Part shown: positions 56,873 to 63,274 of the stretch, in pieces | Layout of the letters: the number at the start of each line of letters is the position of its first letter | Numbering within the stretch: position 1 is the stretch's first letter | DNA from: an uncultured Candidatus Rokubacteria bacterium | GTDB lineage: Bacteria; Methylomirabilota; Methylomirabilia; Rokubacteriales; CSP1-6 | DNA: 64,000 nucleotides | Direction of reading: 5' to 3' | Assembly: GCA_963762145.1 (NCBI GenBank) | Contig: CAVXJS010000015.1 | Span: 192,001 to 256,000 of the forward strand | Made by a program: the position numbers and the translations under genes | The notes under the pieces: generated by a model | Databases searched by the model: none | What the model was told of the DNA's origin: nothing | Seen by the model: the letters and a program-made list of their open reading frames with translations, nothing else

Positions 56873-57469
56873 GCGGGGTGCTCTTCGCTACGACGCAGGA
56901 CGTGGACAAATGGCGGTGTGAGGGCCTGAAGGATGGAGACCGAGCACGGACGCAGAAGCCAAGCGCCACCAAGTAGCGCCCTTTTTCGAAGAGAGTTGAG
57001 CCGCGAACAGACCAGGCCGCCGTCGCTACCCGCTCACGGCGCTCCATCTGCGCCCGCCGCCGGCGGGATGTTGATCCCGCGCTCCCCGCGTCGGAAGCCC
57101 CATGCGGCCAGGCGCGCGATCAGGGTATTGCGATGCACGCCCAGCCCGCGCGCGGCCCGGCTCTGGTTCCAGTCCTCGCGCTCCAAAGCCCGCAGCACGT
57201 AGGCCTGCTCGAAGCGGTCGCGCGCGGCCTTGAGGGTGAGCGGGGCCTCCCCCTCGCCGCGGCCCGGGGCGACCTCGTTCATCGCCAGATCGAGCGGCAG
57301 GTCGTCGAGGCCGATCACCGGGCGGGTGGCCAGGGCCACGCTGCGCTCGATGATGTTCTCGAGCTCGCGCACGTTGCCCGGCCAGTCGTAACCGTCGAGC
57401 GCCAGCAGCGCGCCCCGGGAGAGGCCGCGGACGCCCTTCTTGAACTCCTGCGAGTACTTTCGAATGAAG
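56873..57469. repeat. Direct repeat copy A (~597 bp) of 62679-63274
   Basis: Manual alignment: about 11 substitutions and one 1-nt indel. Confidence 0.95.
57034..57469 (-). pseudogene. 5'-truncated duplicate of the sigma54 activator 3' end (end of AAA+ domain and Fis-type HTH)
   Basis: [11 protein letters not shown]...[10 protein letters not shown]...[16 protein letters not shown], identical to the 62839 gene except one residue; no homologous 5' part. Confidence 0.9.
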
Positions 57470-57927
57470 CCCGACGCCCTCAAGTCCCCCAAGGACTTGC
57501 GGTGACGAGGGTTGCAAGGCGCGGCAAACCGGGGCAGCAGACGCAACCCAGGCGCAACCGCCATCCGTGGATTCCTCGGCACCCCTCCCCCACCCGCCAA
57601 CCGATCGAGGCGCGCCGGAGTCACCCCCTGAACACGGGCTGGTGCATTGGCTACCTTGCCCTCGTCTCCTCACCCTCCCAAAGATCCCCAACCGAATCCA
57701 ACCCGGGCTGACGGGATCTGCTGAGCAGGATGGGTCGCCGATTTGCCGTGGATAGGATCAGATCGTCGCACCCCGGAGAACATGACCCCATTTCGCCGCC
57801 AAGACCCGGCAAAAGATGACGGCTAAACAACGGTTCCCGGCCGTCCTTGACCCCTCTAGTTCCCCAGACTAAGCTCGCCGCACCTGTCCGACCGTTTGCG
57901 GCTCGGCTCGCAGGGAGGCGCTCCAGC

Positions 57928-60900
57928 ATGAAGTGTCCCCGCTGCCAGCACGAGAACGAAGCGGGCGCGAAGTTCTGCGAGGAGTGCGCCACGCCGCTGG
58001 CTCGGGCATGCGCCAAGTGCGGTCGAAAACTGTCGCCAACAGCGAAGTTCTGCCCTGAGTGTGCGCACGCAACCGGCTTACCTGCCGCGCCGCCACCGGC
58101 TCAGCGATTCGACTCCCCGGAGTCCTACACCCCCAAGCACCTGGCCGAGAAGATCCTCACCTCGAAAGCGGCCCTGGAAGGCGAGCGCAAGCAAGTCACG
58201 GTCCTCTTCGCCGACCTCAAGGGGTCGATGGAACTACTCGCCGACCGCGACCCAGAGGAAGCGCGGAAGTTACTCGACCCCGTGCTCGAACGGATGATGG
58301 AGGCCGTTCACCGCTACGAGGGCACGGTCAACCAGGTCATGGGTGACGGGATCATGGCCCTCTTCGGAGCACCCCTTGCCCACGAGGACCACGCCGTACG
58401 CGCATGCTATGCGGCCCTCGATATGCAAGCGGCGATTGGCCGAGATGCGGAACGCGTCCGGCGCTCCCACGGAATCTCGATCGAGATCCGCGTCGGGTTG
58501 AACTCCGGCGAGGTCGTGGTCCGTGCGATCGGCAGCGATCTACACATGGACTACACCGCCGTTGGCCAGACCACCCATCTGGCTGCCAGGATGGAGCAAC
58601 TTGCGACTGGCAGCAGAAGTCTCCTTACCGCCGGCACCTTGCGGCTCGCGGAGGGCTACGTCGAGGCAAAGCCCCTGGGGCCAGTTCCCGTGAAAGGGCT
58701 CGACGCTCCCGTCGAAGTCTTCGAGCTGACGGGCGCGGGTCCTCTTCGATCACGCCTGCGGGTGGCGGCGGCGCGCGGGCTCACCAAGTTCGTCGGGCGC
58801 GACACGGAGTTCGAGCAGCTGCGACGGGCGCTCAGCCGTACGGCGTCTGGCCACGGCCAAGTCGTCGCGATGGTCGGCGAGCCAGGCGTGGGCAAGTCGC
58901 GGTTGGTGTGGGAGTTGACGCATTTTCACCAGACGCACGGCTGGCTGATCGTGCAAGGGGGCTCCGTTTCATACGGGAAAGCGACGCCGTATCTGCCTGT
59001 CATCGACCTGCTGAAGGGCTACTTCCAGATCGCGGACCAGGACGACCACCGAAGGATTCACGAAAAGGTGCTTGGGAAGCTGCTGACCCTCGACGAGGGG
59101 CTCCGTCCCGTGCTGCCCGCGGTGCTGGCATTGCTCGACGTGCCGGTCGAGGAGGCCGAGTGGCTGGGGCTCGATCCACCTCAGCGTCGGCAGCGCACGC
59201 TGGATGCGGTCAAGCGGGTGGTCCTCCGGGAGAGTCAACTCCAGCCGCTGCTGATGGTGTTCGAGGATCTCCACTGGATCGATTCCGAGACGCAGGCGTT
59301 GCTTGATGGTCTGGTGGAGAGCATCCCAGCGGCGCGCCTGCTCTTGCTCGTGAACTATCGGCCCGAGTATCGACATGAGTGGGGGAGCAAGACGTACTAC
59401 ACGCAACTGCGGTTGGACCCGCTGCCGCCGGAGAGTGCGGAGGCGCTCCTTGACGCGCTGCTCGGACTAGACCCGACCTTCGGTGATGTGCGGCGACTAC
59501 TCACCGCGCGGACGCAGGGGAATCCGTTCTTCCTGGAAGAGAGCGTGCGCAGCCTGGTCGAGACTGGTGCACTCGTTGGGGATCGTGGCGCCTACCATCT
59601 CAGTCGATCCGTCTCGACGATCGAGATCCCGGCGACGGTCCAGGCGGTTCTCGCCGCCCGGATCGACCGGCTGCCCGAGGAGGAGAAGAACCTCCTCCAG
59701 ACCGCCGCGGTGGTTGGGAGGGACGTATCCTTCGGCGTTCTCGAGGCCATCGTCGACCGCCCGATCAAGGACCTGCGTCCCGGTCTCGCGTCTCTCCAGG
59801 CTGCCGAATTCCTGTACGAGGCCAGCACGTCGCCCGACCTCGAGTACACCTTCAAGCACGCCTTGACGCAGGAGGTCGCGTATCAATCGCTTTTGAAGGA
59901 GAGTCGCGCCCGACGGCACGAAGATATCGCGCAGGTCCTGGAGCAGCGGTTCCCCAGCCTCGCGGAGACCCGCCCGGACCTTCTCGCCCATCACTACACC
60001 GAGGCGGGACTAGGTGCGCGCGCCATTCCATACTGGCACCGAGCCGGGCAGCGGGCGAGCGAGCGCTCCGCCCACCTCGAGGCGATCGCGCACCTGACGA
60101 GGGGGCTCGAGCTGGTCGCGATCCTTCCAGCGGGAACGGAGCACATCCCGCAGGAACTCGAGCTTCAGGCCGCGCTCGCGGTGTCGTTGATGGCAACCCA
60201 GGGCTTCGCGGCCCCGGAGGTCGGTCGCGCATACGCCCGGCTGCGGGAGCTGTGCGGGTATGCGGGCGAGACGGCGCAGGTCGGCGATGCCGTTGCCGGG
60301 CTCTGCGTCTATCACATCGTGCGGGCGGAGTTTGTCCCTGCTCGTGAGCTCGGGGAGGAGCTCCTCCGCCTGGGTCAACGGGTCCTGGACCCGGAGCTCC
60401 TGCTGCTCGCTCACAACGCACTCATGGGCGTACTGTTTCGGATGGGTGAGTTCGCAGGGTCGCTCGACCACGCGGAGCAGGGCGTCGCCCTCCACGACTC
60501 GGGCCAGCATCGCGCTCACGCAGTCCGTCATGGCTTCGATCCAGGCACGAACCTCCGGGCCGGAGGCGCCTGGACGCTGTGGATGCTCGGCTACCCGGAC
60601 CGGGCGTTGCGGTGGGCCTCGGAGGCGGTCGTGCTCGCCCGTGAGCTTGGACACCAGCACACCCTCGCGCAAACTCTCTATTACGCGGCCCGGCTCCACC
60701 AGTTCCGCCGAGACCCGCACGCCGTGGCCGAGCACGCGGAGGCTTGCGTGGCGATCTCAGTCGAGCATGGGTTCTCGTTCTGGCGGGCCGACGGGGAAAA
60801 GCTTCTGGGCTGGGCCCTGGCGAGGCAGGGACGGCACACGGAAGGGCTCGCTCATATCCGTGAGGGCCTGAGCGCATACCGGGCGACCGGCGCTCTGACT

Positions 60901-62435: not shown

Positions 62436-62678
62436 CCAACGGGGCCCTACGCCCGTCGCGGTCGCGATCAAGCCTTGGCCGCCACGCTTCGCAAGCGCGG
62501 GCCGAACCCCCGCGCCAGGCTCGATCAAGGAGTTGCTGTCCTTACACAGTGATCTTTCAGTTGGCGAGATCGACGCGAATGGGGCCCCACACGTGAAGGA
62601 ACCGCTTGCTTGCTGATCCGGAAATGATCATGGCGCTGATGGTTAAGAACCGTGGGGCCGACGCGGCTGCCGTCCTGA

Positions 62679-63274
62679 GCGGGGTGCTCTTCGCTGCGAC
62701 GCAGGACGTGGACAAATGGCGGTGTGAGGGCCTGAAGGATGGAGACCCAGCACGGATGCAGAAGCCAAGCGCCACCAAGTAGCGCCCTTTTCGAAGAGAG
62801 CTGAGCCGCGAACAGACCAGGCCGCCGTCGCTACCCGCTCACGGCGCTCCATCTGCGCCCGCCGCCGGCGGGATGCTGATCCCGCGCTCCCCGCGTCGGA
62901 AGCCCCACGCGGCCAGGCGCGCGATCAGGGTGTTGCGATGCACGCCCAGCCCGCGCGCGGCCCGGCTCTGGTTCCAGTCCTCGCGCTCCAAGGCCCGCAG
63001 CACGTAGGCCTGCTCGAAGCGGTCGCGCGCGGCCTTGAGGGTGAGCGGCGCCTCCCCCTCGCCGCGGCCCGGGGCGACCTCGTTCATCGCCAGGTCGAGC
63101 GGCAGATCGTCGAGGCCGATCACCGGGCGGGTGGCCAGGGCCACGCTGCGCTCGATGATGTTCTCGAGCTCGCGCACGTTGCCCGGCCAGTCGTAACCGT
63201 CGAGCGCCAGCAGCGCGCCCCGGGAGAGGCCGCGGACGCCCTTCTTGAACTCCTGCGAGTACTTTCGAATGAAG
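62679..63274. repeat. Direct repeat copy B of 56873-57469
   Basis: Manual alignment as for copy A. Confidence 0.95.

Follow-up and report, generated by a model that had tools for sequence, protein, structure and literature searches.

The window analyzed here is a 64,000-nucleotide stretch of DNA from an uncultured Candidatus Rokubacteria bacterium (positions 192001-256000 of contig C15, which is ~400 kb long, in the source assembly G000). Near one end it carries two copies of the 3′ end of a gene for an NtrC-family sigma-54 activator. One copy is the end of the intact gene, and the other lies as an orphan on the far side of a 5.8-kb unit that brings in two signaling genes. We assign a probability of roughly 0.58 to the reading that these repeats are a scar left when DNA from a close relative was acquired by way of shared homology, with no integrase involved. 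The source assembly has the character of a metagenome-assembled genome (6.26 Mb in 25 contigs, 88% complete, 5.4% contamination). Comparisons drew on a collection of 40 relatives, with 21 genus genomes used for repeat and motif searches and 14 genus relatives for synteny at the locus.

The orphan (copy A; 56873-57469, minus strand, 597 nt) comprises the last 145 codons of the activator (57034-57469) and 161 nt beyond the stop codon. Copy B (62679-63274, minus strand, 596 nt) takes in the final 145 codons (62839-63274) of the gene that is intact, together with 160 nt of post-stop sequence (62679-62838). The copies start 5805/5806 nt apart, are ~98% identical, with 11 substitutions and one 1-nt indel in a run of T residues, and are the sole two in the assembly. 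Homology ends abruptly at both edges, and the 18-nt edge sequence GAGTACTTTCGAATGAAG occurs exactly twice in G000 at 0 or 1 mismatch, with no third copy. An earlier note on this DNA had described a sharply bounded repeat of ~145 codons plus ~160 bp, and had proposed an insertion into the 3′ end of the activator gene. Both statements are borne out: the gene is kept intact by a second 3′ end next to its 5′ part, and the other copy is a displaced orphan.

The intact activator gene (62839-64000 and on to window-equivalent position 64317, minus strand) has a longest open reading frame (ORF) of 492 amino acids (aa), in which Pfam identifies REC, the AAA+ sigma-54 interaction domain, the AAA lid, and HTH_8. 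Its NCBIfam matches are generic NtrC/AtoC-type models, all scoring under their equivalog cut-offs, and its orthologs in genus relatives share 82-93% nucleotide identity. Orphan A forms part of a predicted ORF (57034-57624, 196 aa) that opens with 51 codons of unrelated sequence and to which Pfam assigns only AAA_lid_14 and HTH_8.

Seven of the differences between the copies lie in the coding part. Six are synonymous third-position changes and one is a second-position change, exactly the count reported in the earlier note. The single nonsynonymous difference is an Asn/Ser exchange in the tail that follows the helix-turn-helix (HTH), and the lid and HTH_8 domains are identical. The 161-nt post-stop part holds the other 4 substitutions and the indel. 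The synonymous excess has a P value of 0.002 under uniform mutation, 0.009 if only transitions are allowed, and 0.033 if only GC-to-AT transitions are allowed. Thus, the proposal that both copies had been under selection stands only weakly, at a strength set by the mutation model. This bias favors two alleles that diverged in working genes over the decay in situ of one copy.

Comparison of 15 loci (those of the 14 genus relatives and of G000) places this duplication in a wider setting. Synteny with the relatives is kept upstream of the activator and is not kept downstream. The distance from the stop codon to the conserved left-flank gene, which encodes a phosphonate-type binding protein, is 74-192 nt in five of the 14 relatives. 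Two others have the stop codon 0-1 nt from the genes found at 28.5 kb of the window. In six, the left flank lies 706, 836, 1464, 1582, 3156, or 8168 nt from the stop codon with unrelated DNA between, and the last relative ends at a contig end. The empty allele that the earlier note proposed to look for in relatives is therefore represented, both by the five short intervals and by the two loci that run into the 28.5-kb genes. In G000 the corresponding distance is ~34 kb. Because these distances scatter so widely, we regard the activator 3′ end as a hot spot. In the closest species, G013 (~92% nucleotide identity in the gene), the activator end runs directly into a homolog of window positions 28508-27717 and then 26547-18070. 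Relative to G013, G000 has ~34 kb of extra DNA at this place (28509-62857), and the 5.8-kb unit is its innermost layer.

Displaced gene ends also occur in two sister species. When the repeat was used as a query against the 21 genus genomes, only G000 and G004 returned two matches. In G004, a 281-nt direct repeat (94.3% identity; ~97 nt of gene end plus 183 nt downstream) flanks 2.4 kb that encode one 556-aa protein. G012 carries a decayed orphan in three pieces of 70, 53, and 87 nt (90-94% identity) with internal deletions, ~1.5 kb past the gene and behind a receiver-only response regulator; its duplication of ~350 nt has decayed to ~200 nt. Both of these older orphans are decaying, and both adjoin the native left flank. 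Therefore, it is the resident end that became the orphan, and the new end arrived together with the cargo or next to it. Orphans are detectable at 3 of the 15 loci, and none was found at E values up to 1e-4 in the other occupied loci (G001, G005, G007, and G008).

A direct duplication of the anchor thus flanks the insert at varying length, namely 597 nt in G000, 281 nt in G004, and originally ~350 nt in G012. The gene is cut at a different point each time, at -436 nt in copy A, at about -97 in G004, and at -289 or farther in G012. A shared event for G000 and G012 is unlikely because each lineage has its own native post-stop sequence in the repeats and because the activator cuts differ. We also considered a longer G012 orphan reaching -436, with a junction held in common by descent. 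This candidate was rejected because its similarity is not significant (117 of 500 shuffles score as high).

G000 itself preserves an older generation of displaced end. A 29-nt remnant at 28480-28508 (minus strand), recognized by alignment and by the synteny break, consists of the last 9 codons and stop codon of an activator gene of the G013 type, with the ancestral downstream DNA still attached, which corresponds to a cut at -29. The remnant matches G013 at 23 of 29 nt, whereas the present gene tail matches it at 20 of 33; the tail now found in A as well as in B has the same length but represents another allele, one more distant from G013. Therefore, the gene end has been replaced by another allele at least once, although this older replacement touched only the last ~10 residues. 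Two generations of displaced 3′ ends, orphan A and the 28480-28508 remnant, are stacked in this genome.

These structures can be accommodated by a simple series of events. A donor strain would have carried the pair of genes for the cyclase and the binding protein directly downstream of the same activator gene. A fragment reaching from activator codon -145 to the far end of the cargo would have passed from that strain into a cell whose activator precedes other DNA. Its ends would have been joined illegitimately at the short microhomology CTTCAT to form a circle, and the circle would have integrated by one RecA-type crossover within the shared 597 nt, in the manner of a Campbell-type integration. 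By an equivalent route, a linear fragment would recombine in the activator and join illegitimately at codon -145 of the resident copy, as in homology-facilitated illegitimate recombination (HFIR). Either route would yield the intact gene, 161 nt, the cargo, the orphan 3′ end, 161 nt, and then the old downstream DNA. A conserved activator next to a permissive downstream region would serve as a recurrent anchor, such that acquisitions stack and older ones, along with older gene ends, are pushed outward.

Events of this kind have a laboratory precedent. As described in PMC3240628, 56 of 60 Escherichia coli clones arose when a linearized, partly degraded molecule with one-sided homology was re-circularized and integrated by a single crossover, and in the 14 of these that were sequenced, 109-950 bp of the homologous locus had been duplicated. 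Only 4 of the 60 clones were due to true HFIR, and the same paper gives 3-10 bp of microhomology as usual for HFIR junctions elsewhere. Genes for ComEC, two Ku homologs, and ComEA-like HHH_3 proteins are present in G000; therefore, uptake and end joining are plausible on the grounds of gene content.

The inner junction is where any illegitimate joint would have been made, and the sequence on its cargo side is conserved elsewhere in the genome. An intergenic element of ~250 nt (57470-57700, minus strand) begins directly at the edge of copy A. It includes a CAAGTCC/GGACTTG hairpin at 57481-57499, GGTTGC at 57510, and CGCAACC at 57542 and 57553, all at the positions listed in the earlier note. 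The tandem CGCAACC pair (57542-57559) reads GGTTGCGCCTGGGTTGC on the minus strand, where it forms a GGTTGC pair with a spacing of 11 nt, and a second invariant block, CTCGATCGGT, lies upstream of it. The motif is rare. A looser pattern has 5 matches in G000 versus 0.8 expected, and a stricter pattern has 8 matches in 4 of the 21 genomes. Extended copies of the element occur in G000 at C9:873052, C9:874304, and C11:318881 and on contig C643 of G011 (locus L112), and the core alone occurs in the G012 cargo (L025, sense 6791-6855). The two inverted copies on C9 and the one in G011 lie ~150 nt upstream of HHH_3 (ComEA-like) lipoprotein genes. The C11 copy is ~300 nt upstream of, and divergent from, the closest paralog of the cargo cyclase gene, and the window copy is placed likewise.

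The element may be the regulatory region of a small regulon. Two other identities were considered and set aside. The motif is not a general feature of the cyclase family, given that it is found upstream of none of the 58 homolog loci from other genomes that have at least 600 nt of upstream sequence. Regarding a structured RNA, the consensus fold of 5 copies has no covariation support (covariation term +0.6), and Rfam gives no match at E values up to 1 in the 54-64 kb interval. A mini-ORF of 13 codons (MKPDALK.P..LR, then stop) is also present at 57464-57505 (plus strand) and on the reverse strand of C11 at ~318925-318966. Its start and stop codons occupy the same places in both element copies, and its ATGAAG is the microhomology discussed below.

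The C11 copy belongs to a paralogous module (C11:310075-318960) that is absent from relatives at that place. This module contains a gene for a receiver-only response regulator that is apparently frameshifted, a hairpin repeat, two binding-protein genes, a cyclase-STAND gene, and the conserved element. It is strain-specific, and its border with conserved DNA lies ~900 nt past the end of the element. Therefore, the element is not the terminus of the C11 insertion. The G012 cargo matches both flanks of this module, the receiver gene and the element, without the middle. As a result, the G000 and G012 cargos look like pieces of paralogous loci that were cut near the same end of the element.

Comparison with this C11 locus (318881) also suggests how the joint might have formed. 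It matches the window cargo end perfectly for 15 nt up to the junction and then reads CTTCAT. Past the junction, the C11 copy and the activator at codon -145 are identical at 17 of 24 nt. If the donor resembled the C11 paralog, the cargo end and activator codon -145 would have been joined at a 6-nt microhomology, ATGAAG (CTTCAT on the gene strand; 57464-57469), within a patch of partial identity. The introduction of PMC3240628 describes illegitimate joints as having this appearance. We considered whether the C11 locus might itself be a decayed orphan with the same cut, and this was rejected because the similarity ends after ~24 nt. Beyond that point the two show no similarity, with a local score of 17 against a shuffle mean of 14.0 (sd 1.6, max 19) and an empty tblastn result.

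Several observations weigh against acquisition from a relative. The donor arrangement, in which the cargo adjoins an activator with no orphan, was not found in the 40 relatives, 79 genome loci, and 79 metagenome loci, and the collections searched contained no conspecific strains. The C11 locus is a paralog rather than the donor, and it resembles the window only loosely over the rest of the element. Natural capture would also call on events that are rare in the laboratory. The junctions are known from the assembly sequence and from the parallel structures in two other assemblies (G004 and G012). The inner 168 nt of the repeat are identical between A and B, which may reflect gene conversion and blurs any dating. 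Five of the differences between A and B can be polarized; four of these are derived on A, and all four are GC-to-AT changes, as would be expected of plain decay. For the orphan lineage alone, the synonymous share (3 of 4) is not significant (P = 0.06-0.23). Finally, the distance from the orphan junction to the start of the motif is 90 nt in G000 and 77 nt in G012, in the same orientation, and random fragment ends do not predict the same rare motif near an orphan in two species.

A rival reading is an event in situ with no imported allele, which we regard as unlikely but as the strongest of the alternatives. Here, the cargo would have entered the 3′ end of the activator where a staggered break had formed, or through joining between sister chromatids or by template switching, with duplication of 597 nt of resident sequence on both sides as a very long target duplication; the orphan would since have decayed, and the working copy would have been held by selection. 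A single event suffices, and Ku is present. In G004 and G012, the post-stop sequence of each of the two repeat copies is that of the lineage itself, and the polarity of the A/B differences is in keeping with an orphan that decays. Moreover, the identities of 98%, 94%, and 90-94% in G000, G004, and G012 look like an age series, to which the internal deletions of the G012 orphan also conform. However, an orphan running free should change at all codon positions, and six of the seven coding differences are synonymous. The older remnant in G000 likewise reveals at least one occasion on which the gene end was introduced from another allele. To our knowledge, there is no described bacterial mechanism that creates target duplications of 280-600 nt, and we count this against an in-situ origin.

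The earlier note had instead interpreted the locus as a non-autonomous element with sites that resemble integrase arm sites. In such a model, a recombinase encoded elsewhere would move the element, the GGTTGC/CGCAACC repeats would be arm-type sites ~75-90 nt from a crossover at the inner repeat edge, and a replacement 3′ end for the target gene would be carried along. The architecture is indeed reminiscent of e14 and phage 21 of E. coli, which integrate into the icd coding sequence by means of an integrase and carry a replacement 3′ end. As in those cases, the target stays intact through a second 3′ end, the original end is left as a pseudo-fragment, and most of the differences are synonymous. 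The rarity of the motif, and the recurrence of its pair at similar distances from two orphan junctions, also speak for such an element. Nevertheless, e14 and phage 21 encode their own integrase, use a fixed short core, and cut at a constant point, none of which is found here.

No recombinase family is present among the ORFs scanned by Pfam from 25.6 to 64 kb, and none of the 12 PF00589 (tyrosine recombinase) matches in G000 is on contig C15. PF00239 (resolvase) has 0 matches in G000, in a genome that is 88% complete, so that an enzyme might still act in trans. The integrase nearest to any copy of the motif is 28.8 kb away. The 18-nt candidate core has no other copy, as stated above. The different cuts in the target gene are equally hard to reconcile with a fixed core, and attachment sites are typically far shorter than the 597 nt shared here. 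GGTTGC pairs lie near two of four orphan junctions; the cargo ends at the G004 junction and at the older G000 junction lack the motif in 90 and 52 nt, respectively. The pair is also part of the ~250-nt conserved element at ordinary, integrase-free loci, and on C11 the strain-specific DNA continues well past that element. The suggestion that integration swaps the HTH end of the activator also fails, given that the single residue that distinguishes the A protein from the B protein is not in the HTH. In view of this evidence, we consider an integrase-driven, site-specific element to be quite improbable. The coincidence of motif and junction could be explained if the hairpin at 57481-57499 is a fragile site or if a protein binds the terminus, and this keeps a site-specific component alive at low probability.

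A related idea, which we rate as equally doubtful, is that integrase-free "homing cassettes" circulate among Rokubacteria-like strains. Cargo modules carrying a captured activator 3′ end would leave as circles via the repeats, be taken up, and re-integrate by single crossover. In two species, the end of the cargo would then be marked by the conserved GGTTGC-N5-GGTTGC element, either because DNA breaks there preferentially or because a protein binds that terminus. If this were true, the activator gene would offer an attachment site, defined by homology, at which cassettes accumulate much as in an integron but with no integrase.

It is very improbable that the structure is an assembly artifact, a single contig put together from two coexisting strains that differ in the DNA behind their activator genes: despite the MAG-like character and contamination of the assembly, a 2% copy difference typical of between-strain distances, and a lone indel in a T run, strain collapse joins within shared sequence and would not make the novel junction of codon -145 and cargo end at 57469/57470, contigs of up to 1.2 Mb suggest long reads able to span a 0.6-kb repeat, analogous structures occur in two other assemblies, and 8 of 21 listed soil metagenome runs (from 2 studies) contain at least half of the sampled words of the stretch, which demonstrates the presence of the sequence and not of its junctions.

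Homology-anchored acquisition from a close relative, the reading that we prefer, has much in common with the re-circularized-fragment single crossovers and HFIR covered in PMC3240628. In each, a conserved stretch anchors foreign DNA, one illegitimate joint is made, often at 3-10 bp of microhomology, and no dedicated recombinase is needed. The single-crossover route likewise leaves a direct duplication around the insert, with laboratory lengths of 109-950 bp. There are also differences. The known events were obtained in the laboratory in E. coli, Acinetobacter, Streptococcus, and Pseudomonas, whereas this one is natural and belongs to an uncultivated Rokubacteria/Methylomirabilota-like lineage. 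Classical HFIR usually deletes recipient DNA, and here there is a duplication. Unlike the laboratory cases, the structure recurs at one gene in three species and in two stacked layers, with a donor and an intermediate that we infer.

A second parallel is provided by the Rhs, CdiA, and type VI secretion system effector loci. According to PMC5361080, DNA that newly enters a conserved gene at its 3′ end provides that gene with another end and displaces the previous one downstream, orphan arrays are built without a known integrase, and HFIR is proposed as the mechanism. The successive orphan ends stacked in two generations downstream of one conserved gene in G000 resemble such arrays. In those systems, however, what is displaced is a highly divergent toxin tip accompanied by an immunity gene, and the system exists for the sake of this displacement. 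At the present locus, the gene encodes a transcription activator, the cargo consists of signaling genes, and the old and new ends specify the same protein except for one residue. The duplication therefore looks like a by-product.

The locus is best described as a fresh instance of an already known type of recombination scar. It lies at a hot spot that is used repeatedly, and one oddity is left over, the motif near two junctions. That rare conserved element is also the single feature that could make the case more specific. As a natural example it is clean, with two stacked layers in one genome and two independent parallels in sister species, and it illustrates how, in a large lineage of uncultivated soil bacteria, genes can be gained again and again at a conserved gene that borders on permissive DNA, with no need of mobile-element machinery. 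Displaced 3′ ends of this sort are useful markers of the order of acquisition and can be mistaken for the attachment sites of integrative elements. For annotation, the lesson is that a long, slightly diverged 3′-end duplicate around cargo does not, by itself, prove an integrase-driven island.

The cargo between the repeats has the content given in the earlier note, a zinc-ribbon cyclase-AAA-TPR gene and a binding-protein gene. The first gene (57847-61305, plus strand) probably starts at Met28 (57928), judging from its sequence, and Pfam assigns to its product a double zinc ribbon, a class III nucleotide cyclase domain, an AAA_16 (STAND-like) ATPase domain, and TPR. It scores 478 bits against the kinase/cyclase fusion model NCBIfam TIGR03903, under the 705-bit cut-off. 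The second gene (61302-62435, plus strand), whose start overlaps the cyclase stop codon, encodes a periplasmic binding protein of PF04392 (ABC_sub_bind) by Pfam. Both families are strongly expanded in G000. The cyclase/AAA/TPR gene has 25 other tblastn matches of >150 residues (best 64% aa identity), and the binding-protein gene has 57 (best 62% over a part), often in tandem clusters. A non-coding right end (62436-62678) reaches the outer edge of copy B, and similarity to it was sought in relatives and metagenome loci and not found.

The best homologs of the cyclase gene outside G000 are 69% identical (79 genome loci) and 82% identical over a part (79 metagenome loci). The donor search with the cyclase protein returned only 38-82% relatives in genome and metagenome contigs, none with common flanks or the element. 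The cargo was also considered as a defense system, which was rejected because its PADLOC PycC matches are generic and confined to the cyclase domain, with no partner genes. A literature search on Rokubacteria with cyclase or sigma-54 found nothing relevant.

The older extra DNA (28509-56872) lies between the 29-nt remnant and orphan A and is absent at this locus in G013 and G011. It encodes a histidine kinase, an ECF sigma factor, RtcB, a 2895-aa GH94 glucan synthase/phosphorylase-like protein, and an ABC-transporter cassette, and it includes a low-GC stretch with a ferritin/Dps-like gene (56137-56631). The GH94 gene (39952-48639) has its best G013 match at another locus, at only 68-74% nucleotide identity, and may be a second, foreign copy. 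The cassette (49135-54675, 5.5 kb) comprises genes for an SbmA/BacA-type ABC protein and an ABC exporter along with three ORFs that have no family. It is found in different genomic contexts in G013, G005, and G008 (84-90% identity), and the G013 copy breaks up a stretch that is otherwise syntenic with contig C14 of G000.

Smaller features of this DNA include a repeat of 50-70 nt at 56009-56068 with an 11-nt perfect inverted repeat (GCCCGAAGGGG ... CCCCTTCGGGC). Nine further copies are present in G000 (87-95% identity), several of them beside PF04392 binding-protein clusters and in the integrase-bearing part of contig C14, and relatives also have copies at 90-95%. There are no tRNA genes from 26 to 64 kb and no sigma-70-type promoter from 56 to 64 kb. 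The latter interval has one terminator-like site (56044-56064), fewer than shuffles give. A 38-nt stretch inside the older inserted DNA (31699-31736) is 92% identical to 62791-62828 of the post-stop segment.

The other side of the activator gene has also gained DNA. Directly upstream, at window-equivalent positions 64411-65364 (L001:8411-9364), lies a stretch of ~950 nt with a gene for a class I methyltransferase. This stretch is absent in every relative compared, in which a protease gene abuts the activator, and it is a second strain-specific insertion at this gene.

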